IMG/VR virus record: IMGVR_UViG_3300045993_000425
Coordinates: 102,844 to 166,843 of that record
Reading direction: 5' to 3' (one strand)
Length of the DNA: 64,000 nt
Source: a virus
The position numbers and the translations under genes were made by a program. This document shows positions 5,744 through 44,093 of this stretch, piece after piece. Position 1 is the first letter of the stretch; each line of letters begins with the position of its first letter. Under the pieces are notes generated by a model that saw only the letters and a program-made list of their open reading frames with translations, was not told the DNA's origin and ran no database searches.

Positions 5744-8700
5744 CTAGCAGCCAGACCACAGTTTGTTCATGCCCTCTGACAGGTTGCCGTGGATGTCTCG
5801 CAGCTGCCGCAGCCTAGTCATAGGGCATTCAGTACCAACCCCATAAAGTCTAAGCGTTTTCTCGATGACATTCTCATTCAGGTCGAGTAGCCACTCCCTG
5901 AGGTCGATATCGTCCTGACCAGCCAGCTTAGGCATGTAGACAAGCCGGTCCTCTGGGGCCATCTTCATGAAGTCTAGAGGAGCCCATGCTCGCAGGATGT
6001 AAGGCACGAAGCTGCTAGGGTCAGTTCCAGGCGAGTAGTCCGTACCGGCGAAAGCTGACCCATGATCGATGAGGGCGATAGCACCGGCTGGCTCGACCAG
6101 AATGTTCTGGCCATGAGCATCAGTCTCCCCAATGACCCAGAGGTAGCAGGCTAGCCGGTGTAGGAGGCCTGACTTCAGGTAGGGGATGAGCACCTCAGAG
6201 GCTAGCTGCTCTGCCTGCCTGTTCTGCTCGTCCAAGGGCTTGAATTGCGCCCCTAGCAGCCTCATGGCGGCGGTTTCGCGCCCATTGATGAGGAGCAGGT
6301 CGCAGTGGGGGATCGACTGCCCTAGCCCCATCTCCTTCGCAATATGGTAGGCTGCCGCTTCCCTGGCCGACTGGCTGGCGGTTTCCTGCCTGACTCCAGC
6401 AGCCGGTGAAAGTTTCCCACTGCCTGGCTTGAGGAGCCAGATGCCACCAGACTTAGGGTCACGAGCAGCTAGAGCCCCCTTGGAGTGCTTGCCGTTGAGG
6501 TTGAGAGGCCAGACGAGGCCTTCCTTCGCCGCTCTCCCTACCTCGAGTGCTGTGTCACGCGCCTCGAGGACAGCCGGTGTGACAGTCTTGACCCAGTGCT
6601 TCTCCTCTTCAGCCTTCCCAAGGTCCCTTCCGCCAAGCTCTAGGACAGCCTCCAGGGCTCGGAGGTTCTGTTCGTTGTCGGCTAGCTGGACAGCGAAGAG
6701 GACAGCCTTCTTCTTGTCTCCAAGCACCCTGTAGGCAATCTGGTACTGGTCATGGTCGAACGGCCTACCGGCGGCCAGGAAGATAGCTGCACTGACCAAG
6801 CGGTCTAGGTCTGGGTCGTGCCCAAGCTGCCTGGAGGCCTGGATGATCTCCCAGGACTCAAGCTTACCGGCTTCTGGGTCGAGCCCGAGTAGCTGCTCTG
6901 ACTTCTTGGTCTTGTTGGGACTAGCAGGAGCCATCTGAAGGCTGTGACGGTCCGGCTTGCCGGGAGTGCCTTGCTGCACCTTTAGGTCTGGCTGTGTCTC
7001 TAGTGAGTCCCACAGAGCGTAAGACTCTGGTGAGTTTGTGGTGTCTGACCATACCGTCCCGAACCTAGAAGCTAGATGGCGATACAGAGCAGTAGCGACC
7101 CCTTGTCGCTGGAACTTGGGATGGACGACTGTATTGAAAATGGTCATTCCGGTTCTATTCGAGATACCTCTTAGGGTTGCGATGGTCGGTCGCTCTTCGA
7201 TGTGAGTTGGCACGTCTGTTGCCGTGACATTGAAGCGGGACCACGGGATATCTCCTTCGTCCTCTGAGTCTCGATAGTGATGTACCCACCTGCCTTCCCC
7301 CAAGGGGTGAGTGTCGATGTAGGTATCAGGGGTTCCTGGGCGAGCGTCTTCGGCCTGATACCTAGCCTCATTGTCTGGCCATGAAGGGTACTCTAGTGGC
7401 ATCTTTCTTAGCCGCTCTGACTTCCGAGTACTATCAGGTGCAGGAGGCAGCTGACCCGGCAATCTGCGGCGACGAGGGATGGCTCCAGCAGCTGCAATGC
7501 CACCAGCAATGCCCAAGCCAACAGCACCCAGACCGAATCCGACCCGGCTGCCGGTTTGGGCTCCTTCGTAGGTAGACAGGGCGGCCTCTCGCATCTCGGG
7601 ATCAACCGGCATAGGAGCGTGGTCCCAAGCTCTCTTCTCTGACTCCAGAGTGGCCCCACTCAAGGTATTCGCTATAGTCCCCGGTGCAGGAGGGTTGGGG
7701 TCTAGGATGTGACCTGCCTCATGGGAGACTGCACTCGGGTGAGCAGTGTCATTGGCAAAGATGTGCCCCTCGGATGGAATCGAGAAGGGGCTCATCTTTA
7801 CGGAGGTCTTGAACTTCGCCCAGCGTGCTTCCTCCTTTGGGGTGGTGGGAGCTCGTAGGTCTGCTGGGGTAGTCAGCTTGATCCCAGGAAGCTTGGAGGC
7901 ATTGCGGTCGAATATGGCTCGAGTCGGCTCTACTTCATGTGCGTGCCTGGCATTGACCTGACTCCAGTGCTTGGCCTGAGTCAAACTGCCAACCCCACTA
8001 CCCGCCTTGGCTCCCGCTAGCCCACCGGCAGTCGCCATGCCAAGAGCAAGCGCACCTATGACTCCATTACGGATAGCTCCCTTCTCAAGAGAGTCGTCGC
8101 TCTCGGCAATGGAGTCGATCAACCCGTAAATCCAGGTCAGGTTGACCTCGTCCACCTTGGCCTTGTCGGCTGTCAGGGATGTCTCGACAGTGACCGTCAG
8201 AGGGCAGCCCAGATGCTCGAAGACCCCTTGCGTCGTATTGTCAATATCCTTGCAGATGAGCAAGCCGTCTGGGTCTACTGTCCCTTTATTCCCCTCGACA
8301 TCGTAGAGCTCGACCTTCTGCCCAGCCGCAGCCGGTAGAATCTCGGCAGCCTTCTTAGCCACCTCTCGGAGCTGGTCATCGAAGACATAGGCATAGGTAG
8401 ATGGAGGTAGGTCTTTCTTGTCTAGGTCAGAGTCCTGGTGGAGGTCTACCATCGCATCCGGCGTAGGGATGGAGATGATGTCCTCATAGAAGGCTTTAGC
8501 CTCGTCTGAGGCATCAGGAGCTACTCGGACATCGTCATACCGCCGGTCAGCTACCTCGAGCACCCATTTCCCTTTGACCCGGTACTCGATCAAGTGGTTG
8601 GAAGGCGTCCCATCCTTGATGTTTCTCTTGCCTCGCCCCCAGCCGGTAGGATTGTAGAGGGGGTAGATATTCAGACCCACACCCTTCTCCTTGGCGTATT

Positions 8701-9136
8701 TCAGGATGTCAGGAAGCCTCTCGAGGACTGTCAGGGGGCCAACTTGCTCCTCCCCATGTACCCCAGAGATGATCGTCAAGTGCTTCTCACCCTCGGTCAC
8801 CAGCTTGACGAGGGGTAGACCCTCCACCTCGCCATAGCTATCTGAGCCAGCCACCTTCTCCCACTCCTTCAGGAAGGCCTTGTAGGGAGTCTTCCAATCC
8901 TTGGATGTGAAGACGGAGGGCTCAGGCTGCTCTGCCTTGTGGACAGGCTCCTCATGGTGATGGTGCGCCTCATGCTGCAAGGTGCGCCTCAAGGCCTTGA
9001 TGCAGTCAACGTCCTTGGTAGCGATGACTCTGGCGACAGCAGCATCCACCTCCCCCTTGCTCGAGGAGGGATCGAGGATGACTCTCTCGGCATCGATGAG
9101 GATATCGATAGGCTTACTTGTTGTCATGACGTTCAT
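5744..9136 (-). CDS. polyvalent polyprotein 4: M14-type peptidase/deacylase + TM-flanked HExxH zincin + GNAT + PI3/4K/HipA-like kinase
   Basis: GVHGEE/DLHQD/VET; SHEAGH...ESEKRAW; VHPKFQRQGVATALY; WLLKP, REAAAY, DAHGQN, LIDHG. Confidence 0.85.
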   Translation of the reverse strand: MNVMTTSKPIDILIDAERVILDPSSSKGEVDAAVARVIATKDVDCIKALRRTLQHEAHHHHEEPVHKAEQPEPSVFTSKDWKTPYKAFLKEWEKVAGSDSYGEVEGLPLVKLVTEGEKHLTIISGVHGEEQVGPLTVLERLPDILKYAKEKGVGLNIYPLYNPTGWGRGKRNIKDGTPSNHLIEYRVKGKWVLEVADRRYDDVRVAPDASDEAKAFYEDIISIPTPDAMVDLHQDSDLDKKDLPPSTYAYVFDDQLREVAKKAAEILPAAAGQKVELYDVEGNKGTVDPDGLLICKDIDNTTQGVFEHLGCPLTVTVETSLTADKAKVDEVNLTWIYGLIDSIAESDDSLEKGAIRNGVIGALALGMATAGGLAGAKAGSGVGSLTQAKHWSQVNARHAHEVEPTRAIFDRNASKLPGIKLTTPADLRAPTTPKEEARWAKFKTSVKMSPFSIPSEGHIFANDTAHPSAVSHEAGHILDPNPPAPGTIANTLSGATLESEKRAWDHAPMPVDPEMREAALSTYEGAQTGSRVGFGLGAVGLGIAGGIAAAGAIPRRRRLPGQLPPAPDSTRKSERLRKMPLEYPSWPDNEARYQAEDARPGTPDTYIDTHPLGEGRWVHHYRDSEDEGDIPWSRFNVTATDVPTHIEERPTIATLRGISNRTGMTIFNTVVHPKFQRQGVATALYRHLASRFGTVWSDTTNSPESYALWDSLETQPDLKVQQGTPGKPDRHSLQMAPASPNKTKKSEQLLGLDPEAGKLESWEIIQASRQLGHDPDLDRLVSAAIFLAAGRPFDHDQYQIAYRVLGDKKKAVLFAVQLADNEQNLRALEAVLELGGRDLGKAEEEKHWVKTVTPAVLEARDTALEVGRAAKEGLVWPLNLNGKHSKGALAARDPKSGGIWLLKPGSGKLSPAAGVRQETASQSAREAAAYHIAKEMGLGQSIPHCDLLLINGRETAAMRLLGAQFKPLDEQNRQAEQLASEVLIPYLKSGLLHRLACYLWVIGETDAHGQNILVEPAGAIALIDHGSAFAGTDYSPGTDPSSFVPYILRAWAPLDFMKMAPEDRLVYMPKLAGQDDIDLREWLLDLNENVIEKTLRLYGVGTECPMTRLRQLRDIHGNLSEGMNKLWSGC

Positions 9137-13076: not shown

Positions 13077-13083
13077 CAGAGGC

Positions 13084-13091
13084 TAGATTGC
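13084..13091 (-). promoter_or_regulatory. putative late promoter core GCAATCTA
   Basis: Same 8-mer lies upstream of four late minus-strand genes; here it is 7 nt from the ATG. Confidence 0.6.
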
Positions 13092-13106
13092 GGCTGATCG
13101 AAGGTG

Positions 13107-13370
13107 CTAACCGTGCCTGATCCAGGGGTCTTCGGCTTGCTTGAGGTAGTCCTCTGGGATCTGGTTCGGGTCGACATTAGGCCTATAGGGCTCGACCTTG
13201 ACCTCGAGGTCGCCACGCTTGTTGGCGACAGCCACAGCCTCCTCGAGGCTCCTAGCCGTTTCTGCCTCAGGCACATGGAGGTCGATCCAGTTTCGGATGG
13301 TCTGGTGGTCACCAAATACAGCCTCCTGGCGGCCTTCTGTCAGGTGTAGTACCGTCAATTTAAGTAGCAT
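13107..13370 (-). CDS. hypothetical late protein (start revised to MLLKLT)
   Basis: Start overlaps the end of the upstream polyprotein. Confidence 0.65.
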   Translation of the reverse strand: MLLKLTVLHLTEGRQEAVFGDHQTIRNWIDLHVPEAETARSLEEAVAVANKRGDLEVKVEPYRPNVDPNQIPEDYLKQAEDPWIRHG

Positions 13371-16300
13371 CTTTGGCTCTAGGAGAAAGTGGAGAAACCG
13401 CTTGATTTGCTTGGTGATTCTCAATCCTATCAAAACCCATCAGCTTGATGGCAACGTCGTCCTGGTGGGCTAGGTTGCTCATGATCTCAGCCGGTACACC
13501 GCTGCTGCAATCGACCCACCGCCACTCCTCGACCTCATTGTCGGGGTCATTCGCAGAAGTGGGCTCCCCATCAGAGACGCCGAAGAAGATCGAGACAGGA
13601 ACCTCTCCCTTAGGCCCACCATTCGCCTGCCCGACCTCTCTGAGGGTCTTCACCTCTAGGCCAGCCTCTTCCATCAACTCCCTCTTGGCTGCGTCCAGTG
13701 CCTGCTCTCCTGCCTCTACATGGCCACCAGGGAAGGTCCAGCCTCCAGCCTGTCGCCTTCCGAAGAGGATACGCCCATCCCAGTGCTCGATGATGCAGGT
13801 AACGGCAGAGGTCATGGAGGGAGACAACTCACCCTTGCCTAGACTAGGCTTCATTGGCATGGGCTTCATTGGCATGGGCTCCCTAGACCTGATCCCGATG
13901 TCGGAAGGTCGCAAGTCCCCAGGAACGTATCCATTGCGCTCTGGATAGGGGGTAGGGGCAGGGACAGCCGGTAGATATCTAGTGTCACCAGCTAGGTGAT
14001 TGGTGGTGTTCCTCGCGACCCTGACTGGAACCTCCTTCAGTCCAGCAATTCCAGCTGCGATCAAGCGGTGATGACCCTCTCCCAAGGTCAAGGTCTTCTC
14101 TCGCTGGTGATAGGTCAGCATCAGAGGCTCCCTGATGCCGTTCGTCTTGATGTCATCAGCCAGTGCCCTGTTCTGGGCTGCATCGTTCCGGCGATCTACC
14201 TGAATGTACTTCAGAACTTCGTCAATAGGAACCAGTTCAGTATGGTCAGACCAGTTACGTTTCATCGTGCTGTGGGCCTCCTCAGTGAACCGTCCACTCG
14301 CGTCTCGCCACTCTGGAGGCTCCTGCGAGCTCGCCTTCCTGATGTCATTGGTCATGACAGTATCTATAACACGTTTGTCCATCTTTGGACTAGGGCCAAA
14401 TGAGTCTATTTCAGAGGAGGACTTGCCGAGGCCATACTTGTACGGCTTCCCATATTCAGGGTGGTCTGGGTTGCCCTGGTCATACCCCTCCAGCTCGTGG
14501 TCCCTCGTGACAGAGACATGAGTCCTGGCAGCAGGGCCTGAGTGATAACTTCCGAGGACAGTATGGCATCCGAAGTGGTTTCTAGCATGGGCGTTGAAAG
14601 CTTCCACCATCAGCTTCCCAAACCCCTTCTTCTTCATGTCCTCGTCCCGAATCTCCTGGTAGTCGATCCGAGCCGTCTTAGGTGCATCCCAATCAATCCG
14701 GCCATCTAGGACGCCTAGCCGGTTGCCTGAGGGGTACAGGAGAGCGACGGACTGCATTCGTGGCTCAAGTAGAGGCTCCCCAGCAGGCCATCCATCCTGC
14801 CTCTCTCTGACCTCTCTCGTCGTGAGCTTGTCAGACCAATGTCGGACGTGCAGCTTGAAGCCCTTATCCTGGTACTCCTTCGGGAGGCGGAAGCTGTAGT
14901 CATGGCTCGTCACTACCGGCTCATCCGCTTTGGGTGCCCCAGGAGGAACCGGGATGGTAGACAAGGCCATCTTCTCGAGGTCCTCGCCCTTGCCCAGACC
15001 GTACCTGTAGGGCCCGAAGCGATTGTCGAAGCTTGACTCATTGGAATTGTGCTGGATACCATTCCTCTCGGGTTTCAGGTCCCTGGCCCGATAGGGTAGT
15101 TCATGCACCCTGGCCATCTTGTTGTGGACCCTGTTCGCATCAGTCGAGTGGTACTCACCTTGGACCGTATGGCAGCCGTGGTGGTTGCGGACATGGGCGA
15201 GGAAGGTTTCGTACATCAGACTACCCAGCCCCCTCCCCTTCAGGTTGTTGTCTATTAGATCGGTATAGTCAATCTCAGCCACATTGGGAGCAGACAGATG
15301 TGCCTGCCCAGACACCTCGCCAACCTTGTTGTTGCCTTTGTCCAGCAAGTTCGCGTTGATGTGGTACACTCTAGGTCCATTCCCGATTGGTCCCTTACTG
15401 GAAGCAGGGGTGTTATTCACCACCAGCCGGTATCCAAGCCTTTGATACTCCTCAGGAAGCCTCTTGGTGTAGTCATGCTGGATAGCTCCCCTAGCCTGCT
15501 GGAATGGGGTCAGAACTGGGTTACTTACTAGTGGACCCACGGGAATGGTAGACAGGGCCATCTTGGTGAGGCTAGCTGGCAGCTCTGACTTGAGCTCCAT
15601 CTCATGCGGCCCAAACATCCCATCGAATGCCGTATCGCCCTTCTTCCTTCTAGCCATCTCAGAGGGGGTAGGGTGTGGATTCAGGACTGGCTTGTAGTCC
15701 AGCCCCTGCTGCCTGGCTACGCTTGCTCTCGCCCTCGAGGCTGCTGTGCTGTGGACACCCGAGACATCCGTTGTGCAGCCATGGTGATTCTTGGCATGGG
15801 CCATAATAGCCGTATACATCGAACTGCCCATGCCTTGACCCTGGAAGCCGTTGTCGAGGTCCGAGAGCCCGATGTTGAGAGAGCCCTGCTGGTAATTCAT
15901 AGGCTGCTTGCTATTTTGGTGCTCATGCAGGCGACCAACTACCTGCCCGAGGACGTTGTTCTCCTTGTCGTACATGGTAGCCGAGATGTCGCCAGCCTCA
16001 GGGAAACCTCTCTTGTATGTTTTGGCTGACTCGACTATTAGCTGGTGCCCTGCCTTCTGGTGCTCAGGCTTCAGAAGGTGGGAGTAGTCGAACGCTTGAG
16101 TGCCATCACTGCCAGCTGTTCCAGTAGGCTTTCCGAGGGCAATGTTGGCTAGGGCCATCTTCTCGAGGTCTTCCGAGTCGGACTTCTTTACTGGAGGAAG
16201 AGGACGCCCATTGATTGCAGACCTCACCTGCTGGTCATGGTCGAATGGGCGGTATGTGATGTGAGTCTGAAGCTCGTCGGCACCATGGTCTTCAGGGTCT

Positions 16301-17196
16301 GCCAAGTGATCGTATTCTCTACTCAAAGCTTGGATCTCGCCTGGATCTTTCCCGAGTAGGTTTGGAGCAGCCTCGGTCACACCCTGGAAGATGTCTCTGT
16401 GGATAATACCATCATAGCCAAGTCGCTTGCCTACAACTGGCGTCCTGGGGGCATCCACGAAGGCGAAGGTGTCAGCCCTGATGTTGTCAGCATGCTTGAA
16501 AGCTGACTTCGTATCTGTCTCCATGTCCTTGAAGTCATCCCTTGCCTGCATGAGAGGGGTGGACATGTGCATGAAACCAGACTGATCTTCGTAGGGAACC
16601 TTGTTCCAGGGGTCCATCCCTGCATTGACCTTGAAGCTAGACTCTCCATCCATATTCATATCTTTGACATGACGTTTGGATAGGTAATTCAATACCTTGA
16701 CCGCTTCTTCGTGTGTCATCCCATTCGGCTTACCATATTTCATCGCTCTCAGGTAGTGACCAAATGACATTTGAGGACCATGCTTAGTCAGGTCTAGTGG
16801 GTTCTTGAGCACCATATGGACAGGGAACACATTGGCTCCCTCTCCAAACTTGCTGCCGCCCTTGTAGGAAGGTCCTGGGGTTCCCGAGTAGATGCTGCCG
16901 ATGTCGGACGAGTCTGTGTATGAACGAGTCGAAAGAGCACCATGCGGGTTGCCAGCTCGCCTAGTGCCCCGATACAGGACGATAGGCTTACCTTTACTGT
17001 CAACCAGCCTGGAGCCAGCGAACCAAGAAGGGTCGGGTTCGACAGCCTTCATAAGCTCACCCGCACTTACAACATACTCAGACCTCTTATGCAGCCGGAA
17101 ACGCCCATTGGCGCTCTTTTCGGGAGAAGCCGGTACATCGGGCTCATCCGACCCCTTCGTCGCTTGGTGAGCCGCCTTCCTCGCTTTAATCTTCAT
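13360..17196 (-). CDS. polyvalent polyprotein 2: ART-PolyVal-like + 3 paralogous GNATs + ParB/Srx-like + Nudix hydrolase (start revised to MKIKARK, 1278 aa)
   Basis: WFAGS..VD..GKP..LYRGT...KNPL...GYDGII; GQGMGSSMY / GRGLGSLMY / KKGFGKLM; GIREPL...GEGHHR; Nudix box GGHVEAGE...AAKRELMEEAGL. Confidence 0.88.
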   Translation of the reverse strand: MKIKARKAAHQATKGSDEPDVPASPEKSANGRFRLHKRSEYVVSAGELMKAVEPDPSWFAGSRLVDSKGKPIVLYRGTRRAGNPHGALSTRSYTDSSDIGSIYSGTPGPSYKGGSKFGEGANVFPVHMVLKNPLDLTKHGPQMSFGHYLRAMKYGKPNGMTHEEAVKVLNYLSKRHVKDMNMDGESSFKVNAGMDPWNKVPYEDQSGFMHMSTPLMQARDDFKDMETDTKSAFKHADNIRADTFAFVDAPRTPVVGKRLGYDGIIHRDIFQGVTEAAPNLLGKDPGEIQALSREYDHLADPEDHGADELQTHITYRPFDHDQQVRSAINGRPLPPVKKSDSEDLEKMALANIALGKPTGTAGSDGTQAFDYSHLLKPEHQKAGHQLIVESAKTYKRGFPEAGDISATMYDKENNVLGQVVGRLHEHQNSKQPMNYQQGSLNIGLSDLDNGFQGQGMGSSMYTAIMAHAKNHHGCTTDVSGVHSTAASRARASVARQQGLDYKPVLNPHPTPSEMARRKKGDTAFDGMFGPHEMELKSELPASLTKMALSTIPVGPLVSNPVLTPFQQARGAIQHDYTKRLPEEYQRLGYRLVVNNTPASSKGPIGNGPRVYHINANLLDKGNNKVGEVSGQAHLSAPNVAEIDYTDLIDNNLKGRGLGSLMYETFLAHVRNHHGCHTVQGEYHSTDANRVHNKMARVHELPYRARDLKPERNGIQHNSNESSFDNRFGPYRYGLGKGEDLEKMALSTIPVPPGAPKADEPVVTSHDYSFRLPKEYQDKGFKLHVRHWSDKLTTREVRERQDGWPAGEPLLEPRMQSVALLYPSGNRLGVLDGRIDWDAPKTARIDYQEIRDEDMKKKGFGKLMVEAFNAHARNHFGCHTVLGSYHSGPAARTHVSVTRDHELEGYDQGNPDHPEYGKPYKYGLGKSSSEIDSFGPSPKMDKRVIDTVMTNDIRKASSQEPPEWRDASGRFTEEAHSTMKRNWSDHTELVPIDEVLKYIQVDRRNDAAQNRALADDIKTNGIREPLMLTYHQREKTLTLGEGHHRLIAAGIAGLKEVPVRVARNTTNHLAGDTRYLPAVPAPTPYPERNGYVPGDLRPSDIGIRSREPMPMKPMPMKPSLGKGELSPSMTSAVTCIIEHWDGRILFGRRQAGGWTFPGGHVEAGEQALDAAKRELMEEAGLEVKTLREVGQANGGPKGEVPVSIFFGVSDGEPTSANDPDNEVEEWRWVDCSSGVPAEIMSNLAHQDDVAIKLMGFDRIENHQANQAVSPLSPRAKDAT

Positions 17197-20100
17197 TGGC
17201 TTTCCTGACCTTGCCTCGCCACATCTTCCTGCCCTTCCAGGGACCGTCCTGGGTAGGGAACTCCCCGTACTTGGCCTCCTTGAAGCCCCAGAGGCGTCGA
17301 GGAAGCTCATCATAGGAGAAGCGGAAGTGAACCGGCAGTGGGTCCTTTGGGTCTAGACCAGAGATTGGAACTTTGAACTCAGGATGCGGCCAGTGGATGT
17401 CCCCATAAAACTCTCGGTTGCGGAGGTGCTGTAGGAAAGCCTCAGAGATGAGCTCATTAGGGTGCGTGCCACCGTAAAGAATCTCCTGGATACGCTTGAG
17501 CTGTTCTGGAGGGTATTGATTGTTGTAGTCATTCCTGAGGGCCTTTTCATGCTGCTCCCTATCTCGCTCCACGTTCTCTCGAGGTTGCCTCTCTTCGTAC
17601 TCCCTCTCGCGATTGATGAGACTCTCCCTTACATTCGCAATATCTTCCTCTGTCCAGGGGTGATGGGTGTGCTCATTGGCTACATCGTACTTGTTGCCCT
17701 TCTCGTCAACGTAAACAACGTATCCCTCACGGTCATTGTACTCATGCACTCCCTCAAGCATCTTGGGGCTAAACCTCCTCCCATTCGAGATGACGGGCTG
17801 GCAGTTACCCACCTTCAAGCCTGACTCCATCAGATGGGCCATCCTCAAATCTGCCTTCTTGGCGTAGTCAGCTTCTGGGTCGTCTGGGAGGATGGTATCA
17901 TCAGGGAACATATTCAATGCCCTCTGCTTGGCCTTTGACTCCATCCTCTTCGTCCATTCATGCCCGAGGTCGCTCTGCACCTCGTCTACATGGATGGGCT
18001 TGTGCTCCTGCTTGTCCTCATCCCACTCGCCACCCGTAAACCTGACCCAGCCTGCCGTCTTCGGAGAGCCCACAGGGTTGACAGGGTGCCCGCTATTGTA
18101 CCGGGAGTTGAATAACCCCTGGAATAGCTCCATGAGCCCTTCCTTCTTCAGTTGGACCATCCGCTCCATAGGGAAGTCCAGCCGGAAGACGTTGCTCTCC
18201 TGGGCTGAGTGCTGCTGGGTAGGGAGGAGGTCATCAGGCAATACCTCACCCTTGACCTTCCTCATACCATTGCAGCTAGGACAGGTAACCGATGTCTCCT
18301 CCTCGAACTCACCCTTTCCATCGCAGATGTGACAAGGTCCCTTGAGTCCAGCAGGTAGGGCTACACCGGTCTGAGCACACATCAGGCAACGATTGACCCT
18401 TGGCTCCTCATTGAAGCAGCGTCGACATACCTTCGCCTCCGAGCTGCCGGTTCCTACGCAGGCGTGGCAGTCAGCTTCCCCAGCACTCCCGGTCCCATGA
18501 CAGGTTTCACAGTCTTTAGGCAGAGTACTGACGTGCTCTAGGGCTGAATCGAGGTCTGGCCTGTTTCCACGCTTTGTACCATTGCACTCACTGCAAGGGA
18601 CCATCACCGTGGTAGGAACGTGACCCTTCCCGTGGCAATGCTGGCACCACTTCATGTAGTCAGACTCACCCTTGCCCCAGTGCCCCTTCGAGAACCGCCA
18701 GGTTTCCTCTGGCTGCTTGTCGATCTCGGCTTGGATGGACTCTACCGACACATGGCCTGGATTCCTGCTGTCTCTAGGCCAGTTCCCTGGAGGCATCTCC
18801 TTGTGATGGACCGATGTCTTCCCCTGCTCGAGGATGTGGTCCCTAGCTGCCCTGAGCTTGTTGGTACGCAGTCTGAAGGTGATGTTCTCGTCCTCTTCCT
18901 CACCGAAAGGCTGGGTCCAGCTCTCGTCCTTCTCTGTCTTCCTCACCTGCCCTGCCCACATCTTCACCCTGCCCCAAGGCCCATCCTGAGTCGGTAGATC
19001 ACCGTAATGCGCCTCCTTGAAGCCCCAGAGCCGCTTAGGGAGCTCGTCGTAGGAGAAGCGGAAATGTACCGGCGGCTCATCCTCTGGACGCCCCAGAGAG
19101 ATGGGTGCCTTGAACTCTGGGTGCGGCCAGTGGATATCCCCTGTATAGCCCTGGTTCCTGAAATGCTGTAGGAATGCCTCGGCAATAAGCTCGTTAGGGT
19201 GGGTTTGACCAAACAGAATCTGGTTGACTCTCTCCAGCTTCTCGGGTGGGAACTCCTTGTCGAACTGAGCCTGTAGACCAGCAGCGTGCTTGGCTCGCAT
19301 CTCCTCGATGACAGCCTTGGGCTTCCTCTTGTCATTGATCATCATGCTGGTGACGACCTGAGACTCGAGGCTGGCGATGTCCTCCTTGGTCCAGGGATGG
19401 TGGGTGGTTGCATCTGGAACTGAAGTTACCGTGCCATCAGGATGACTAAAGCGAGTGTCTCCATAGAAGGCCTTGATCGTTTCGATCCCATCCTTCATTT
19501 TAGGATAGAATGCCATCGAACCACCGACCCTACCTCCGTCCACATACAGTGGCTTGAACGTGCCTTCTAGCGACTGTTGGGTCCGCATAAGAGCATCCCT
19601 GACTGCCTCCTCTGCGAACTTGGCATACTCAGCCTTGACATCATCAGGCAAGATCATCTCGTTTGGGTATTCCTCGATGGCCTTAGCTCTAGCCTCTGAG
19701 CCTGCCTTCTTCGTCCAGCTCTGACCATAGTCGGACTGCACCTCGTCTACATGGATAGGCTGTCTCTCACCATTCGCACTCACCTTATTGCCACCCGTGA
19801 AGCGAACCCACCCAAGCGTAGGCGCAGCACTATTCTCGCTTACAGGATGCCCTGCACCCAGAGAGGCCTTGTACATATTGCCGAAGAACTCCTCCAGCCC
19901 CTCGTCTCGCAGCTGCTGGAGGTGCCTGTCATGCAGGTCGAGCCGGAAAACGTTGCTCTCCTGGGCTGAGTGCTGCTGGGTAGGGAGGAGGTCGTCCTTG
20001 TTTGGGGTTCCTCCTGTGATCATCCCGCTGCCCTCGCAGTCAACGCAGGTTTCGTTGATAGGCTCTAGCGTGCCATCACCGTGGCAATGATGACAGTAGT

Positions 20101-23100
20101 TTATATAGTTGCCAGGGATGTTGACACCGGTTCCCGCACATGCTTCGCAGTCGTCGACCCTGTCTGCTGCATTGCGGCACTCTCTGCACCTGTCCAGGCC
20201 ACTAAAGCACTGCCCCATGCAATAATCGCAGTCGTCACCGCTGACCTTGACTACACCCTTTTCTTTGCACTCACCACAACCCTCTCCCCCTCCCTCACAG
20301 TCAGGGCACTCCTTGTGCTCATTGCCATCGCCACCACAGAACTCACAGTCCCCACACTTCTGGCCGATATCGGTGATGTACTCGCGAGCCAGTGCTAGTG
20401 TTAGGCCTGTCCTACCAGTCCCATCACATTTCTTGCACTTAGGCACGATTCTGTCGGTGATCCCATCACCACCACAAGTGTCACAGACTTGATGACCGAG
20501 GCCATCTTCCGCCTCCCCATAGTACCCCTTGGAGAAGTTCCAGACATGCGAGGGCTGCTTGTCGATTTCAGCCTGAAGGTGCTCTGCCGAACAGTGTGAG
20601 GGATTCTTGGGGTCCCGTGGCCAGTTCCCAGGAGGCATCTGCTTGTAGTGGATCGAGGGCTTACCCGTAGCCAAGATTTGGTCCCGGCCGAGGCGCAGCT
20701 TGTTGGTCCTGAGCTTGAAGCTGATCTCGCCCTCATTCGGGTTTGAAGGGTCACTGCCTTCAGTCCAGCTCGCATCCGTCTCTGTCTTCTCGAGGTTCTT
20801 GTGCAATTGGTTATCCAGCTGCTGGCTCCCATAGCGGAATAGCTGGTCGCTGAAGTCTCTATGCACCTGAGGGTCCACCATCCAGCTCTTGATTGCCTGG
20901 TTCTCGTCCCTGTCAGCGTCAGTCTTGGCTTCCAGGTTCCGACCCAGCTCAGAGTCCTGGTAGAGGGCGAGGTTGTAGGCATTGACGTGACTGATGATGT
21001 CCTTGTGCCGGTCTAGCCAGTTGAGGGTCCTACCATATGTCTCTTGGTTCTCCCCAGGTAGCCCCACCATGATGTTCGGGATGAGGCTGACACCAGCCTG
21101 CCTGAGCTTCCCTGCCGCCTCCTCGAGTAGCTTCTCTGAGGCTGGCTTCTTGTGAGCCCTCAGGATTGGGTCATTGAAGGTTTCTACCCCTAGCTCGACG
21201 TGCCTGATGCCAGCAGCCTTCAGGAAGTCAGGAGTCATGTTCTTCATGGCAGCTGCTGTCGTCTGGATTACGAACCCCTTGAAGTTAGGGTTCTTCTCCT
21301 TGATCTTCTGGTAGATCTGAGGGAGCAGCTTATGGTTGTCAGCTTGGCCGAACGTCTTGTCATTGAGGTAAATCAGCTTTGTTGGCAGGTGCTTAGAGAT
21401 GGACTCCACCTGCTGCATGACCTCATCGGTGCTCTTCTCCTCTACCTTCTTGGGGACGCAGCAGAATGTGCATTGGTGCCTGCATCCATCCGATAGGGTC
21501 AGCCTGGGGATAGTCGGAGTCCCTTGGAAGTGTCTGTAGTCATGGCCAGGATTGTAGGGAAGTCCGAACTCCTCTACGAAGCTCCGCATGTCAGGATGCA
21601 CCTTGACATTGTTGAGCCCAGCGAAGTGGCTCATGTCGGTGTAGCCCCCTACCGCGATCTTCTGGGTAGGGACAGCCTGGGCTAGCTGCTTGATGAAATC
21701 CTTGTTGACATCCAACGCACTGAAGGCGACATGAGAATACCCAGCGTCCTTGATCATCCTGGCTGCTTCCTCTGGGTTTCGGACTGTCAGATGGTCTGCA
21801 TTCGGGACACTATGGGCCAGATGCGCTTGCCATTGGGGGATTTCCCAGAAATCCTGAGGTCTATCATAGCCTTCCCTGTTTGCGTACAGCTTGTCATAGT
21901 AGGCATCTGAGTCATCCCTCTGACGGTTCCCTTGTAGGAGGTCAGATGAGAACTGCACCATCAGGACTCGATTGGAGTTGCTACCAGATGGATGCTGCCG
22001 TACCCACAGGTTCTGGTCTTGGGTAGGTGATTTGAAGCCCTGCGGCGGCTTTGGCTTCGCTTGGCTTGCCTGCTGGTATGTCTGGTGGGGACTCGTGTGC
22101 TTCGAGCCAGGGACCTCTCCTCCTGCCTCCTGGTGGGCTTCCTTGGGCTGTACCCTTCCAGTAGGTGTACCTAGCGTGACGAGCCCCTTGCTGAGACGCT
22201 CAGGCTCAGGTTCTGCCCATCCGTCCCTATGAGGGCTCTGGTTCAGGTGGCTAGAGAGGACAGCCTTGACTGCCTCCTCGAGCCCTTCCCTTGTGTCCTG
22301 TAGGTTTACCTTGAAGCCTCCACCGCTACCTTCGACACTACCTACCAGCCGTCCACCCTTGCTGACACTAGCGATGTGGTTGGAGTTGATAGCGAGCTTG
22401 TACCCTTCAGCCTCAAGCTGGTGAGGAAGCTGGTGGATGTGCGAAGTGACTACACCCTCGTTCTTCGCTAGCCTTACCCGATATGGACCATACCTGCCAT
22501 CGTAGTCGCTGATAGCTCTCGGATTGATCCACTCTGAGAAGTCATTGTAGGAGCCATCTACTGAGTTGCTCCCATAGTTAGGCTTGGCGGTGTAGACGAG
22601 GTTGTGCTTGTCTGCTAGACGCTCCCTGGTTCTGTGGGCAGAGGTCGAATGCACATCTCCTACCTCCTCCTTGACCCCGAGGTGCCTGACAGCATGCGTC
22701 ATTGCAGCCTCGTATAGAGCCGTTCCTAGCCTATTCTCTTTGCTCCTGTGGTTCGCCTTGACGCAGACATCAATCGTCTTGAGGACCGGCTTGCCATTCT
22801 CCATCTTGATTTCGCCATCCCACATACCTACAGGGACAGAATGGTCCAATGGCTTGACATGAGCTACCAGGCTCTTCAGTTGGGGCTTGTACCTAATGAG
22901 TAGCTGGTACTTGGATCTGGCAGGAATGGGTAGGTGCTCGGAGTAGTCATAGACATGCTCTCCGGTAGGATACTGCCTGACCAGCTTACCCTCTGGTAGT
23001 TCCTCAATTGCCTTCTGTAGCCTTGGTGAGACTGCTTCTCCGTCCTTCTCTCCCTCCTCGGCGGCTTCCTCGTTGCTCCTTACGTTGTCAATGATAGATT

Positions 23101-25579
23101 TTGCGTACTTCGATGGTCTATCCCAGCCAGTTAGTGGACCCTCTGCGACACCCTTGCTGTAGTCAGGAGGAGTCTCAAACTGGTCCCAGGTCGGGTCTAG
23201 GACAGTCTTCGTCTTGGTGTGGAATAGGAAGTGGTGGGTGTCGCCCTCGTGATGGACCCACCTCATCTGCCAGCCTGTCCTGGGAGCCCCGATGAGATGA
23301 GCCAGAGCCTCGGCACCTACATAGCAATAGCCTTTCGTCGGATGCTTGTCGCCACGGTATCTTGGCTTCCGCATCTCGTCTTTGAAGCTATCCCTGACCC
23401 CATGCATCGCTGCCAGGATGTGGTCAGGTAGGTCGATGTGGCTTGCAGGCTCTGGGTAGGGAGCCTCTGCCTTCCTGATTTTGCCACGCCACATCTTTAG
23501 GCCCCTCCAAGGTCCATCCTCGGTAGGGAAGTCATCATCCCCATACAGGCTTTCCTTGAATCCCCAGAGGCGGCTTGGTAGTTCGTCATAGCCGAAACGG
23601 AAATGGACCGGCAGCGGCTTGTCGGGACTCAGTCCAGAAATTGGGGCCTTGAACTCAGGATGGGGCCAGTGAATGTCTCCTGTGTACCCCTTATCGCGGA
23701 AGTGCTGGAGGAAGGCCTCTGAGATCATCTCGTTCGGGTGTACTCCACCAAACAAGATCTCCATGATCCGAGCCCTCTTTTCAGGTGGCAAGTCTCTGTT
23801 TTCACGGTCCTTGTACCTTTGTGCTATCTCAGCACGCAAGATACGCATCCTTTCCAGGGTTGGGCGCTCGTCCTGGCTTCTCAGATGCTCAATCATCTCA
23901 GCCCTTACCCGAGCCAGAGACTGCTCAGTCCAAGGCTGGTGAGTCTTTTCACTTGGATAGTAGTGAGGATTGCCATCAGCATCGATCCAATCGATACCGG
24001 GCTTATTTACGCCAGGATTCAGATCTGGAAAGAACTGCGTACTACCAAACGAACCGTGACTAGAGGAACCCTCCAAGCTCGGAAATGAAACAGTACCTAC
24101 TGGATGATACACCAACAACTCATCAGCTTTTTTCGCATACTCCTCTTCTGCGTTAGCTGGCCGAGCCTTGGAGTCGGGGTAATTATCTTCTGCCACCTTA
24201 TCCCAGTGCTTGCTCCTGTCCTTTGCCCACTTCTGCCCGAAGTCCGATTGCACCTCATCGACGTGGATCGGGTTTCTGCGGTGGTTCTCATGATCCCAAT
24301 CGCCACCAGTGAATCTAACCCACCCTAGATGGTCATCTCCACCAGGGTGTGACTCATAGTGGCTCAGGTCATGCATATTGCGAAATACATCCAGAAGCCC
24401 CTCACTCTCGAGTTGCTTCAAATGTTCCGCTGTCAGGCCAAGCAGGAATGCGTTCGACTCCTGATTTGAGTGCTGCTGCGTGCTTTTCAGGCTCTCTCGA
24501 GTGGGCTCGTACTGAACGTTACCTTTTCCCTCACAGGTAGGGCACTTGCTTCTGACAATGTCGCTGCCGGTTCCACCGCAATGATCGCAATTTCCTCTAT
24601 GACCGATAGGTACATGAACACCTGTCGATCCACAGGTCTCGCAGTCTTCCTTCAGCTCATCTTTATTGTGGCAAGACCGGCATACCTCTAGAGGTCCGAG
24701 CCCAAGCCCTTCACAGCTAAAGCACTGGTTGCCATCGATGTCCTTGCCTACTCCTTCACAAATGGCGCACTCACTTCCATTCAGATTCATGTACCGTTTT
24801 GCATCAACGTAATGACAGTACGATTCATCTTTGCTTGTGCCCGACCCATCGCAGGCAGAGCAAGTATGGTTAACACTGAGCGTTCCAAAATTACAATTGT
24901 CCTCCGGGCAAGGCTTAATCCAATCGCTAGGCCCCTTGCCATAGTAACCAGTCGTTACCATGTAGCGATGCACAGGCCTCTTGTCGATTTCGGCCTGGAT
25001 GGCTTCTACGGATACATGACCTGGGTTGTTAGGGTCGCGTGGCCAATTGCCTGGGGGCATCTGCTTGTGGTGCAAGCTCGTCTTCCCCTGCTCGAGGATG
25101 TGGTCCCTAGCCATCCTGAGCTTGTTGGTTCGGGTCTTGACGTTGACAAGTACATCGTCATCAATGCTCCAGTTGGCGTCCTTTTCGGTCTTCTCAACCT
25201 GCTCGACAGGAACCACCTCATACCCATCGATATACTCCACCCCCTCCTTGGAGGCTGCATCCCAGCGGTGGCTACCATCGAGGATGCGGTAGGCACCTTC
25301 TGGCTGGGCGAGCCGCTGGACGATGACAGGAGGGAGTGTCTCCCCAGCCCTGAGCATCTTGCGGTACAGGTCCCTTCGCTCAGGCCGGTGGACCATGTTG
25401 TAGGGGGTCGAGATCTTGACGGGAACCTTCACAGACCGAAGTTCCTTGCCGGGGCCGCCGAAGACATCCTCTAGCTGCTTGAGGTAGTTCTCGTCCCACT
25501 TCCCCCTGAGCGGATTCTGCTTGCTAGGGAAGCGGACACCATTCCTATCTTCGTACCAGTCTTGTTGTTCATCAGCCAT
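17186..25579 (-). CDS. polyvalent polyprotein 1 (2797 aa): ParB-like + 3x Zn-finger/VDEVQSD module + papain/transglutaminase-like + GNAT + radical SAM
   Basis: LPPVIV..ILDGSHR; CxxCxGxG arrays; GYCY..THHFL..LDPT; RLGTALY; CRHQCTFC with ELGVETF and IMVGLPGE. Confidence 0.88.
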   Translation of the reverse strand: MADEQQDWYEDRNGVRFPSKQNPLRGKWDENYLKQLEDVFGGPGKELRSVKVPVKISTPYNMVHRPERRDLYRKMLRAGETLPPVIVQRLAQPEGAYRILDGSHRWDAASKEGVEYIDGYEVVPVEQVEKTEKDANWSIDDDVLVNVKTRTNKLRMARDHILEQGKTSLHHKQMPPGNWPRDPNNPGHVSVEAIQAEIDKRPVHRYMVTTGYYGKGPSDWIKPCPEDNCNFGTLSVNHTCSACDGSGTSKDESYCHYVDAKRYMNLNGSECAICEGVGKDIDGNQCFSCEGLGLGPLEVCRSCHNKDELKEDCETCGSTGVHVPIGHRGNCDHCGGTGSDIVRSKCPTCEGKGNVQYEPTRESLKSTQQHSNQESNAFLLGLTAEHLKQLESEGLLDVFRNMHDLSHYESHPGGDDHLGWVRFTGGDWDHENHRRNPIHVDEVQSDFGQKWAKDRSKHWDKVAEDNYPDSKARPANAEEEYAKKADELLVYHPVGTVSFPSLEGSSSHGSFGSTQFFPDLNPGVNKPGIDWIDADGNPHYYPSEKTHQPWTEQSLARVRAEMIEHLRSQDERPTLERMRILRAEIAQRYKDRENRDLPPEKRARIMEILFGGVHPNEMISEAFLQHFRDKGYTGDIHWPHPEFKAPISGLSPDKPLPVHFRFGYDELPSRLWGFKESLYGDDDFPTEDGPWRGLKMWRGKIRKAEAPYPEPASHIDLPDHILAAMHGVRDSFKDEMRKPRYRGDKHPTKGYCYVGAEALAHLIGAPRTGWQMRWVHHEGDTHHFLFHTKTKTVLDPTWDQFETPPDYSKGVAEGPLTGWDRPSKYAKSIIDNVRSNEEAAEEGEKDGEAVSPRLQKAIEELPEGKLVRQYPTGEHVYDYSEHLPIPARSKYQLLIRYKPQLKSLVAHVKPLDHSVPVGMWDGEIKMENGKPVLKTIDVCVKANHRSKENRLGTALYEAAMTHAVRHLGVKEEVGDVHSTSAHRTRERLADKHNLVYTAKPNYGSNSVDGSYNDFSEWINPRAISDYDGRYGPYRVRLAKNEGVVTSHIHQLPHQLEAEGYKLAINSNHIASVSKGGRLVGSVEGSGGGFKVNLQDTREGLEEAVKAVLSSHLNQSPHRDGWAEPEPERLSKGLVTLGTPTGRVQPKEAHQEAGGEVPGSKHTSPHQTYQQASQAKPKPPQGFKSPTQDQNLWVRQHPSGSNSNRVLMVQFSSDLLQGNRQRDDSDAYYDKLYANREGYDRPQDFWEIPQWQAHLAHSVPNADHLTVRNPEEAARMIKDAGYSHVAFSALDVNKDFIKQLAQAVPTQKIAVGGYTDMSHFAGLNNVKVHPDMRSFVEEFGLPYNPGHDYRHFQGTPTIPRLTLSDGCRHQCTFCCVPKKVEEKSTDEVMQQVESISKHLPTKLIYLNDKTFGQADNHKLLPQIYQKIKEKNPNFKGFVIQTTAAAMKNMTPDFLKAAGIRHVELGVETFNDPILRAHKKPASEKLLEEAAGKLRQAGVSLIPNIMVGLPGENQETYGRTLNWLDRHKDIISHVNAYNLALYQDSELGRNLEAKTDADRDENQAIKSWMVDPQVHRDFSDQLFRYGSQQLDNQLHKNLEKTETDASWTEGSDPSNPNEGEISFKLRTNKLRLGRDQILATGKPSIHYKQMPPGNWPRDPKNPSHCSAEHLQAEIDKQPSHVWNFSKGYYGEAEDGLGHQVCDTCGGDGITDRIVPKCKKCDGTGRTGLTLALAREYITDIGQKCGDCEFCGGDGNEHKECPDCEGGGEGCGECKEKGVVKVSGDDCDYCMGQCFSGLDRCRECRNAADRVDDCEACAGTGVNIPGNYINYCHHCHGDGTLEPINETCVDCEGSGMITGGTPNKDDLLPTQQHSAQESNVFRLDLHDRHLQQLRDEGLEEFFGNMYKASLGAGHPVSENSAAPTLGWVRFTGGNKVSANGERQPIHVDEVQSDYGQSWTKKAGSEARAKAIEEYPNEMILPDDVKAEYAKFAEEAVRDALMRTQQSLEGTFKPLYVDGGRVGGSMAFYPKMKDGIETIKAFYGDTRFSHPDGTVTSVPDATTHHPWTKEDIASLESQVVTSMMINDKRKPKAVIEEMRAKHAAGLQAQFDKEFPPEKLERVNQILFGQTHPNELIAEAFLQHFRNQGYTGDIHWPHPEFKAPISLGRPEDEPPVHFRFSYDELPKRLWGFKEAHYGDLPTQDGPWGRVKMWAGQVRKTEKDESWTQPFGEEEDENITFRLRTNKLRAARDHILEQGKTSVHHKEMPPGNWPRDSRNPGHVSVESIQAEIDKQPEETWRFSKGHWGKGESDYMKWCQHCHGKGHVPTTVMVPCSECNGTKRGNRPDLDSALEHVSTLPKDCETCHGTGSAGEADCHACVGTGSSEAKVCRRCFNEEPRVNRCLMCAQTGVALPAGLKGPCHICDGKGEFEEETSVTCPSCNGMRKVKGEVLPDDLLPTQQHSAQESNVFRLDFPMERMVQLKKEGLMELFQGLFNSRYNSGHPVNPVGSPKTAGWVRFTGGEWDEDKQEHKPIHVDEVQSDLGHEWTKRMESKAKQRALNMFPDDTILPDDPEADYAKKADLRMAHLMESGLKVGNCQPVISNGRRFSPKMLEGVHEYNDREGYVVYVDEKGNKYDVANEHTHHPWTEEDIANVRESLINREREYEERQPRENVERDREQHEKALRNDYNNQYPPEQLKRIQEILYGGTHPNELISEAFLQHLRNREFYGDIHWPHPEFKVPISGLDPKDPLPVHFRFSYDELPRRLWGFKEAKYGEFPTQDGPWKGRKMWRGKVRKANED
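18189..18232. repeat. 44-bp exact direct repeat (second copy 19950..19993) between modules 3 and 2 of polyprotein 1
   Basis: ACGTTGCTCTCCTGGGCTGAGTGCTGCTGGGTAGGGAGGAGGTC at both sites. Confidence 0.9.
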
Positions 25580-26858: not shown

Positions 26859-27443
26859 TTAGATTGCTGCCCTCTTCTGAGCCATTAGACGGCTCCTGGC
26901 TCGCATTACAGCCTTGGGGTAGGCCTCTGCCTCATGTGTCCACTCAAGCCTGCCAGCGAGCATCTCCCTGGCTCTACCGGGGCCCTGGTTGTAGGCCAGA
27001 AGGATGTGCTCAGGCTGCTTGAAGCGACTGGACAGGTAGGTGAGGTACTCGATCCCCACCTTCACGTTGTCCACAGGGTCGAACCTGTCCACATCTGCGT
27101 CCATCCTGTCAGCCATCCACTCCCAGGTAGACCTGACGAACTGCATCAGACCACCGGCACCTGTAGGGCTCTCAGCGTCAGGATTGAAATTGGACTCCAC
27201 CTCGATGACAGCCAGAACGAGAAGAGGGTCGATGCCTCGATAGGAAGCCGCCTCTACCTGAGCAGATAGCTGGTGGATGTCTACCCCCTCTAGACCATCC
27301 TTGGATGACAGGTAGCGGTGTACCCAGCTATCAGGACGGACAGAGGTATGAGACAGAGGGGCTGGTAGCTCTGCGACTGAAGTCGCCCAGAGAAGGAGGA
27401 ACAGAGTAAGTCGGAGTTTCGAGCGCCACCCGATCCGAGCCAT
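26859..27443 (-). CDS. SLT-family lytic transglycosylase with an N-terminal signal peptide
   Basis: IEVESNFNPDAES..GA.GLMQF, AYNQGPG; basic then hydrophobic N-terminus. Confidence 0.92.
   Translation of the reverse strand: MARIGWRSKLRLTLFLLLWATSVAELPAPLSHTSVRPDSWVHRYLSSKDGLEGVDIHQLSAQVEAASYRGIDPLLVLAVIEVESNFNPDAESPTGAGGLMQFVRSTWEWMADRMDADVDRFDPVDNVKVGIEYLTYLSSRFKQPEHILLAYNQGPGRAREMLAGRLEWTHEAEAYPKAVMRARSRLMAQKRAAI
26860..26867 (-). promoter_or_regulatory. putative late promoter core GCAATCTA
   Basis: Upstream of the 26843 ATG, heading the neck + polyprotein operon. Confidence 0.6.
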
Positions 27444-27456
27444 CTGTCCCTCCCCT

Positions 27457-43871: not shown

Positions 43872-44093
43872 ATGAACGCAACGATCAACATGGTGGTGGT
43901 GACCAAGATGACCTTGGCGGCGGGTACGAAGTACTCCGTCGAGGACACCGTCAACGACTGCCTCTCTGAGAAGATGACCCTTGCGGACGACGCGGATGTT
44001 GAAGCGGTCTGCAACACCGACTTCTTCCACCTCTACACGCTGGCAGGCAAGACCATCTTCGTCGCTGTCGAGGACGAGGTGGTTAGCCAGTAA
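43872..44093 (+). CDS. small hypothetical protein (MNATINM...)
   Basis: AAGGA RBS. Confidence 0.6.
   Translation: MNATINMVVVTKMTLAAGTKYSVEDTVNDCLSEKMTLADDADVEAVCNTDFFHLYTLAGKTIFVAVEDEVVSQ

Follow-up and report, generated by a model that had tools for sequence, protein, structure and literature searches.

The final 64 kb of IMG/VR virus record IMGVR_UViG_3300045993_000425, a single contig of 166,843 bp, contain four consecutive open reading frames (ORFs) on the minus strand that fill positions 5744-25579 of this stretch (the window; 64,000 nucleotides, positions 102,844 to 166,843 of the record) and encode giant proteins of 2797, 1278, 1320 and 1130 amino acids (aa), here named PP1, PP2, PP3 and PP4. 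Family searches revealed that all four are chains of unrelated, self-contained modules, and the linkers between the modules carry a signal of the form (L/V/I/M/F)-x-K followed by S/A/G/T/N and usually then by E (the putative cut after Lys is marked by an arrow below, as in LxK↓(S/A)E). PP1-PP4 are probably polyvalent proteins that are loaded into the prohead, where its protease cuts them at LxK↓(S/A)E linkers, and that are ejected as separate modules together with the DNA. From the modular make-up of the proteins, the statistics, border position and conservation of the motif, and the fold of the protease, we infer that they are packaged, cut at the individual sites and ejected, and what their modules do. 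An earlier note, made from the letters of the window alone, had read the four proteins as capsid-packaged polyproteins cut at a shared lysine motif. The ORFs and every motif pentapeptide that it listed are present, its observation is real and stronger than first seen, and its interpretation, which is partly supported, is the best-supported one.

The module inventory of PP1-PP4 comprises an ADP-ribosyltransferase (ART)-like, six GNAT-like, two ParB-like, a NUDIX, a radical SAM, a PI3/4-kinase-like and an M14-like module, two segments with HExxH and a triplicated module of no assigned family, with several of these assignments lying below curated thresholds and the functions being family-level guesses. 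The description of the proteins as strings of unrelated domains is borne out by the NUDIX, radical SAM, GNAT and DnaJ zinc-finger domains, the ParB PHROGs and the kinase-like fold. The motif delimits 26 pieces, ~20 of them domain-sized and ~14 with any family assignment, several of which are weak; the "about 20 enzymes" expected in the earlier note is therefore an upper reading, which suits the number of domain-sized pieces and exceeds the number with an assigned family.

The loose motif [LVIM]xK[ASGMTN], on which the earlier claim of a shared cleavage signal had been based, is by itself barely above chance and not convincing, with 36 occurrences in PP1-PP4 versus ~25 in shuffled sequences and one protein alone reaching p = 0.014; ~12 of the 36 matches fall inside domains and were missing from the earlier list. 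In contrast, the strict motif with Glu at P2' (the second residue after the cut) occurs 12 times versus 1.8 expected (P = 4e-7), so that enrichment holds for the form with Glu and not for the loose form. As a guard against an eye-picked motif, all 400 patterns of the same form, [LVIM].a[ASGMTN]b, were scored in PP1-PP4. The pair (K,E) ranked first and the runner-up had P = 1e-3. In the remaining 162 predicted proteins of the genome, strict sites number 8 versus 9.0 expected, and the protease fusion, scaffold, portal and cyclase of the head module together carry 5 versus 1.0 expected. Sites beyond those listed before were found at LRK↓DE after the protease region (residue 299), at TKK↓SE in PP4 (745) and at VRK↓AN, four residues before the end of PP1.

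Module borders were set without the motif, using the ends of internal repeats, the envelopes of PHROG and Pfam matches, and the starts and ends of homologues. Of 16 such borders, 14 lie no more than 10 aa from a loose site, compared with a chance rate of 11% (P = 6e-12), which supports the proposed placement of the motif at module boundaries. The two exceptions are PP4 ~745, where TKK↓SE has Thr at P3, and PP1 842, 14 residues from LQK↓A. In PP1, the repeat units span K130↓ to K703, K1598↓ to K2214 and K2214↓ to K2793, and in PP2 each of the three GNAT units opens right after a site Lys (K346↓, K545↓, K742↓), with unit ends at K736 and K925. Each PP2 GNAT starts with K↓MAL and ends in a Lys-containing linker, LKSE/LTK in the first and YGLGK in the second and third; the GNAT-like module of PP1 aligns its border sites with those of these repeats, and its homology to Myxococcus phage Mx1 stops at residue 1037. 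Homology of the PP2 NUDIX module to nine relatives begins at about residue 1129. Moreover, a full-database phmmer search recovered three stand-alone homologues (286-416 aa) that align to PP4 63-348, 67-345 and 72-344, that is, to the K67-K352 piece, one stand-alone homologue of this module (68-352) being a lone gene beside a DNA ligase on another phage contig. That duplication units and stand-alone homologues begin and end at the Lys fits the release of autonomous modules.

The same placement was found among relatives. In the large non-core proteins of 80 related loci, 13 homology breakpoints that reach the terminus of the partner protein have a strict site no more than 5 aa away, versus 1.9 expected. 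A larger and noisier set of breakpoints, to which another 20 kb of sequence from 25 long contigs was added, gave 21 versus 6.3, with the R-for-K, reversed and charge-swapped controls flat, and the test over all proteins was noisy, with a 1.6-2.1-fold enrichment. Two strict sites that had been taken as domain-interior were rejected as such, the intervals used being two-module homology blocks in which the sites are mutually aligned.

The linker at K841 of PP4 was compared across distant homologues. For PP4 746-1130 the full-database phmmer search gave 632 homologues, and this conserved block is the C-terminal module of several hundred clusters of phage multidomain proteins, 233-2406 aa in length. 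In the column aligned to K841, ~130 homologues, all at most 50% identical to each other, carry the motif. P3 (77 Leu, 15 Phe, 13 Met) holds 2.2 bits of information, P1' (47 Ser, 46 Ala) 1.9 bits, P2' (101 Glu) 2.9 bits and every flanking position less than 0.9 bits; the signals at P1 and P2' come partly from the way in which the compared segments were anchored, and those at P3 and P1' are unbiased. In a separate MAFFT alignment, conservation of the Lys in this column is 90% or more. Of 107 homologues, 51 carry a site in the 40 residues at the module start, versus 8.7 expected from the motif density of these proteins (P = 3e-27). PP4 737-1130 was also modelled with AlphaFold from 70 homologues, and the model has a mean predicted local distance difference test score (pLDDT) of 92 and a predicted template modelling score of 0.87; its sole internal dip in pLDDT, to 67, is at 837-846, the coil joining a helical bundle to the PI3/PI4-kinase-like domain, and residues 737-760, including K745, are disordered. 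Both K841 and K745 are thus accessible in the model.

In Foldseek, the kinase-like module of PP4 matched 66 structures at E ≤ 1e-3, with PI4KII alpha and VPS34 (E = 2e-5) at the top. Its DxHxxN catalytic loop and metal-binding Asp are present (DAHGQN at 1006, IDHG at 1023), and kinase-module residues D270, H272, N275 and D288 are invariant in 70 sequences. The unit of helical bundle and PI3/4-kinase-like domain is nearly always the C-terminal module of its protein and also ends the protease fusion described below (Pfam PI3_PI4_kinase, E = 3e-6). From the sequences compared, this fixed terminal place suggests a role beyond catalysis, perhaps in loading.

The motif is also concentrated in the head proteins. 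In homologues of the scaffold-like protein, 207 strict sites were found in 44 proteins versus 12.3 expected (16.2 per 1000 aa, 16.8-fold over composition); K...E is the top pattern of this family, and the charge-swapped control occurs at 0.24-fold, so coiled-coil periodicity is not the cause. The major capsid protein (MCP) of 79 relatives begins with a variable stretch of 8-16 aa followed by near-invariant LxK↓(A/T/S)LEAGxYNAAP. In 34 portal homologues, 19 of the 33 strict sites lie within a tenth of the protein length from either end. Bacillus phage SPO1L4 has the same layout, with LNK23↓ALEAG in its MCP, 11 LxK↓S sites in its scaffold and LSK↓A and LEK↓SE at the start of its portal. Background densities of the strict motif were found for terminase (0.28 per 1000 aa), for the MCP body (0.12) and for a tail-fibre-like family (0 in 11 kaa). 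Thus, the occurrence of the motif in the MCP N-terminus, scaffold, protease and portal, seen before in the window, extends to 80 relatives and a Herelleviridae phage. The MuF sites MGKSE and LQKG that had been counted in the same system are probably chance matches, the MuF region carrying one strict site across 22 homologues.

The candidate cutter is encoded in the same head module as a 1590-aa fusion of a prohead protease to cargo (Table 1). From the N-terminus, the fusion consists of the catalytic domain, a copy of the MCP N-arm with LRK218↓M, LRK299↓DE, a region of no assigned family that holds a 345-aa insertion (482-826), LSK↓GE and LRK↓AT, and the kinase-like C-terminus. Pfam and PHROG searches with residues 1-310 gave no match even at E = 1, and PDB sequence searches with the protease and with a 27-sequence profile gave nothing meaningful; the fold alone matches. 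In the AlphaFold model (pLDDT 82 overall, >90 over residues 11-170), the protease domain adopts the fold of T4 gp21 and herpesvirus assemblin (VIA-align Z = 10.7 to T4 gp21, 5jbl, with a root-mean-square deviation of 2.5 over 123 residues; Z = 7-9.3 to herpesvirus assemblins), and His48 and Ser128 are unchanged across 27 homologues. In 23 of 24 homologues, LxK↓(A/T) directly follows the catalytic domain and is itself followed by the MCP N-arm copy. At about residue 300, fused proteases carry LKK↓SE, LRK↓AE or VKK↓SE (LRK↓DE here), and the stand-alone 300-aa protease of three relatives ends exactly there. The MCP N-arm copy (residues 219-299; 36979-37221) reads LxK↓AxxAG...APSxLTGGAALQxED and, judged from this resemblance, may let the protease co-assemble with the shell or scaffold like a capsid subunit. 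The insertion at 482-826 (35398-36432), a 345-residue excess over at least 10 homologues, starts with Cys, ends with Asn|Thr and has LAGLIDADG-like motifs; it is therefore probably an intein with a homing endonuclease, and no Pfam match was found for it at E ≤ 0.01.

In the proposed mechanism, the polyproteins would be built into the prohead core alongside the scaffold and the protease-cargo fusion, and this shared location within the prohead would make them substrates. The prohead protease (gp21/assemblin fold, His48/Ser128) would cleave after Lys in LxK↓(S/A/G/T)E, and the same enzyme would remove 13 residues from the MCP, fragment the scaffold, free itself from its own cargo and trim the portal ends. 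The freed modules, of ~10-65 kDa, would be too large to exit the shell, remain with the DNA and be ejected into the host. By analogy with the polyvalent-protein literature, they may then serve in host takeover or anti-defence.

Several points weigh against this mechanism. No prohead-targeting peptide common to the four N- or C-termini, or shared with the scaffold, was found. A cut after Lys is indistinguishable from a tryptic cut, and ordinary virion proteomics would therefore miss it. Two modules contain HExxH (HEAGH at PP4 472, HEAMH at PP3 1065). Three of the five strict sites of PP1 are paralogous copies and therefore not independent counts, and several sites in the set lack Glu at P2' or have an unusual P1' (K↓M in four places). 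The repeat alignments include the motif residues and may draw the repeat borders a few residues toward the sites. PP3 is nearly without independent border evidence, its sole independent border being at 91, and is the least supported of the four. Finally, the helical bundle and kinase domain flanking K841 pack as a single unit in the model, and a cut there therefore need not separate them.

In a rival reading, the motif would be a docking or linker element that is mostly left uncut within the polyproteins, for example a short peptide that binds the protease or the shell interior and so recruits cargo. The proteins would then travel mostly whole, like the N4 virion RNA polymerase, and cleavage would be confined to the scaffold and MCP. 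A recruitment peptide would likewise show conservation and border position, a separate targeting signal was not found, the halves around K841 form one compact unit, and a large polyvalent protein, phi24B gp47 (2811 aa), has been detected in virions by proteomics with no sign of cutting (bioRxiv 10.64898/2026.04.10.717836). However, a basic P1, a small P1' and an acidic P2' in disordered linkers, common to textbook protease substrates, have the look of a cleavage site, and the duplication units and stand-alone homologues start and end exactly at the Lys; uncut cargo is therefore judged unlikely. Still less probable is that the linkers are genuine and are cut, before packaging or after ejection, by the embedded HExxH (zincin-like) modules or by a host protease. 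The two HExxH segments and the language-model neighbours of PP3 883-1320, mostly zinc-peptidase families (0.77-0.90), provide a lead in this direction, and zincin-mediated autoprocessing has been argued with phage P1 DdrB as an example (Iyer et al. 2017, PMC5512222). Neither HExxH segment, however, is backed by a family match in Pfam or PHROG searches. The motif is densest in scaffolds and fixed at the MCP N-terminus, after the protease domain and at the portal ends, where an effector-borne zincin would have no reason to act, and SPO1L4 has the same capsid and scaffold sites with no such polyproteins seen near its head genes. That the whole pattern is an artefact of composition, coiled-coil periodicity or post-hoc choice of motif is hardly credible, and was rejected on testing: the loose motif is near chance, the motif was chosen by eye and repeats inflate the counts, but (K,E) is the first of 400 patterns in the polyproteins and also the top one in scaffolds, where its charge-swapped form is depleted, the genome background is at expectation, and the signal was replicated in 149 independent database proteins.

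The phage is an Mx1-like myophage, and the window is the head-gene end of its 166.8-kb genome. Its MCP is 51% identical to the Mx1 capsid protein and 23% identical to the capsid proteins of SPO1-type Herelleviridae. The gene order is that of Mx1: helicase, terminase, portal, 'prohead protease', GGDEF cyclase, scaffold-like protein, MCP, a few small genes and then very large genes, with PP1-PP4 lying 3-24 kb downstream of the MCP gene on the same strand. IMG/VR contains at least 80 related contigs, of which many measure 150-180 kb; the 80 related loci were obtained by an IMG/VR search with a two-sequence capsid-protein alignment, the search with the capsid protein alone as query giving no match. 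Megablast of the phage DNA collection with the 20-kb region also gave no match.

Table 1 Features of the head-gene end of the genome and modules of PP1-PP4 (window positions; ↓, putative cut).
Feature	Position	Strand	Remarks
PP4, 1130 aa	5744..9136	−	Putative sites after K67, K352, K578, K745, K841
PP4 746-1130, helical bundle, linker LGK841↓AEE, PI3/PI4-kinase-like domain	5747..6901	−	Homologues, AlphaFold, Foldseek
PP4 353-578, two Gly/Ala-rich hydrophobic stretches around HEAGH at 472	7403..8080	−	Read from sequence
PP4 68-352, M14/AstE-like	8081..8935	−	Stand-alone homologues; Pfam M14 weak
PP3, 1320 aa	9114..13076	−	Putative sites after K83, K627, K763, K882
PP2, 1278-aa polyvalent protein	13360..17196	−	Putative sites after K50, K346, K545, K736/K742, K925, K954, K1121
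PP2 1122-1278, NUDIX hydrolase, after LGK↓GE	13363..13833	−	Pfam NUDIX E = 1.9e-19
PP2 926-1121, ParB-like	13834..14421	−	phrog_6218 E = 3.8e-9, phrog_498
PP2 347-925, three tandem GNAT modules	14422..16158	−	Pfam Acetyltransf_1 E = 3.7e-9; repeats 344-535, 543-736, 740-925 (self-BLAST)
PP2 51-346, ADP-ribosyltransferase-like	16159..17046	−	Pfam ART-PolyVal weak; homology to Mx1 polyprotein
PP1, 2797-aa polyvalent protein	17186..25579	−	Putative sites after K130, K703, K856, K1039, K1131, K1598, K2214, K2793
PP1 2215-2793, repeat module 3; protein ends VRK↓ANED	17201..18937	−	Self-BLAST, repeat alignment
PP1 1599-2214, repeat module 2	18938..20785	−	Self-BLAST, repeat alignment
PP1 1132-1598, low-complexity then radical SAM with CxxxCxxC, ends LEK↓TE	20786..22186	−	Pfam Radical_SAM E = 1.4e-19
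PP1 857-1039, GNAT-like, between LQK↓A and LAK↓NE	22463..23011	−	Paralogous to PP2 GNAT repeats; Pfam weak
PP1 704-856	23012..23470	−	phrog_12251 at 725-833; domain also starts Mx1 polyprotein (tblastn)
PP1 131-703, repeat module 1	23471..25189	−	Conserved N-terminal part, CxxCxGxG zinc-finger cluster, C-terminal domain of no assigned family
PP1 1-130, ParB_N-like, ends VEK↓TE	25190..25579	−	phrog_2159 at 61-129; Pfam ParB_N weak, E = 0.006
Major capsid protein	28770..30227	−	phrog_752; putative maturation site LVK13↓ALEGG, K13 codon 30189-30191
Scaffold-like Pro/Ala/Ser-rich protein, 293 aa	30276..31157	−	4 loose and 2 strict sites
Protease-cargo fusion, 1590 aa	33103..37875	−	Protease domain 1-~190 (H48, S128), then LRK218↓M, LRK299↓DE, LSK↓GE, LRK↓AT
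Portal with intein	46354..51141	−	LQK↓T, LSK↓S, LQK↓GE near both ends
Terminase	51197..53155		Order shared with Mx1

Further features of the modules are as follows. In PP1, a module of ~580 aa is present three times (41-45% identity; 127-704 versus 1594-2216 and 2211-2794, 41-44% by self-BLAST) and contains a DnaJ_CXXCXGXG zinc finger (E = 5e-17). These repeat modules (17201-25189) share the strongly conserved motifs PIHVDEVQSD, HPNE and DIHWPHPEFK, which match no family or function. An IMG/VR search with the repeat alignment found no relative, a hidden Markov model search of 22 related genomes gave partial matches in three only, and the C-terminal part of the repeat matched only unnamed viral clusters (0.82-0.83) in a protein atlas. 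The length of PP2 is counted from an ATG that overlaps the upstream stop by 11 nt and is 1317 aa from the first ATG; its match to PF18760 (ART-PolyVal; E = 0.0038) scores 18.4 bits, below the curated cutoff of 31.2. PP3 gave no significant match in Pfam and PHROG family searches and consists of a helical piece with no family match (84-627), a weakly GNAT-like piece (628-763) and the zincin-like lead (883-1320, with HEAMH at 1065). PP4 also has a GNAT-like region.

The neighbouring genes include an SLT lytic transglycosylase (Pfam E = 2e-26) and a 109-aa Hsp20/alpha-crystallin-like protein between the MCP gene and PP1 (26859-28073). A GGDEF diguanylate-cyclase-like gene (32000-32788) lies within the head module between protease and scaffold, as in Mx1; its product ends with MVKK↓SE and a 25-residue basic tail and, because of this ending, could be another packaged cargo. 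The portal gene (46354-51141) contains an intein with a LAGLIDADG endonuclease (Pfam Intein_splicing, LAGLIDADG_3), and a C5 cytosine methyltransferase gene (55537-58752) has a Hint_2 domain; the phage therefore has several intein-bearing essential genes. Downstream of the portal, two overlapping ORFs occupy 44083-46352, the upstream one with weak matches to Intein_splicing and DUF559 (endonuclease-like).

Among known systems, Herelleviridae (SPO1, A511, K-type) share a homologous MCP (23%), an N-terminal LxK↓ALEAG, a scaffold dense in LxK↓S and N-terminal portal sites with this phage, but have Firmicutes hosts and, in the 10 kb examined at the SPO1L4 head genes, no giant multi-module proteins. 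The A511 capsid protein reportedly loses ~23 N-terminal residues; published evidence for cleavage after Lys in SPO1-, A511- or K-type capsids was not found in the literature searched. RNA-virus polyproteins offer an analogy only: many enzymes would likewise come from one frame, with a short consensus between them and the protease as part of a polyprotein, but here the virus is a DNA phage, the protease fold is unrelated and processing is proposed to occur inside the capsid precursor rather than in the cytoplasm.

Prohead proteases that read one short motif are established in other phages, T4 gp21 cutting internal proteins and Alt at LxE and phiKZ gp175 likewise being a prohead protease. The SPN3US protease gp245 acts on nine head and ejection proteins through a single AxE motif, and 13 of the 14 mapped cleavage sites lie in N-terminal propeptides of single-function proteins (PMC10052503). 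As in these three systems, a single self-cutting protease of the gp21/assemblin fold and one short motif across MCP, scaffold, portal, protease and packaged proteins would be at work here. In contrast to them, P1 is Lys rather than Glu, and the protease is fused to ~1300 aa of cargo; unlike the SPN3US sites, those of PP1-PP4 lie between successive modules in proteins of up to 2797 aa, which predicts many different enzymes per gene.

Polyvalent proteins of phages and conjugative elements, which combine two to fifteen unrelated effector or binding domains, were described by Iyer, Burroughs, Anand, de Souza and Aravind in 2017 as predicted packaged proteins, with self-processing by embedded zincin-like metallopeptidases proposed (PMC5512222). 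PP1-PP4 resemble them in combining many unrelated effector domains in one polypeptide (NUDIX, GNAT and, as candidates, a sub-threshold ART, ParB/DdrB-like modules matched by PHROGs only and zincin-like HExxH segments), in their position beside portal, terminase and capsid genes, in their predicted packaging and injection, and in extensive domain shuffling among relatives. In the published view packaging is predicted and no linker motif is described (PMC5512222; PMC9503650); nor is there a role for the prohead protease (PMC5512222), whereas here LxK↓(S/A)E is common to MCP, scaffold, portal and protease. The radical SAM, the PI3/4-kinase-like C-terminal module and the triplicated zinc-finger module fall outside the matches to the families described there. 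In the open-access text searched, no literature on this motif or on a prohead-protease role for polyvalent proteins was found, and the Mx1 genome announcement makes no mention of capsid or protease findings. The joining of polyvalent proteins to motif-directed prohead proteolysis therefore appears to be undescribed so far.

Whether polyvalent proteins act whole, cut themselves or are cut by another factor has been open since they were described. A cleavage grammar tied to the capsid protease would turn this question into a direct experiment, and the test is practical because Mx1, which is in culture with a laboratory Myxococcus strain as its host, has the same arrangement. Such a grammar would also show how to divide thousands of giant phage proteins that lack annotation into functional units, single out for counter-defence studies a set of enzymes that are probably injected and act early (ART, GNAT, NUDIX, ParB-like, radical SAM, kinase), and offer a natural design for packing foreign proteins into capsids.

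In summary, using motif statistics, homology searches and structural modelling, a linker signal shared by the giant modular proteins and the head proteins of an Mx1-like phage is revealed in this study. As a tentative generalisation, to which we give slightly less than an even chance, in a whole lineage of large phages (Mx1-like, with a capsid module shared with Herelleviridae) the prohead may serve as a chamber for processing, in which interchangeable effector cassettes carried by a few giant genes are separated by the capsid protease at one universal linker, LxK↓(S/A)E. If so, phage polyvalent proteins would be true polyproteins, and the repertoire of injected effectors would be readable from sequence alone. 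Recombination at the linkers could then add new enzymes, whose loading, release and injection would follow automatically.

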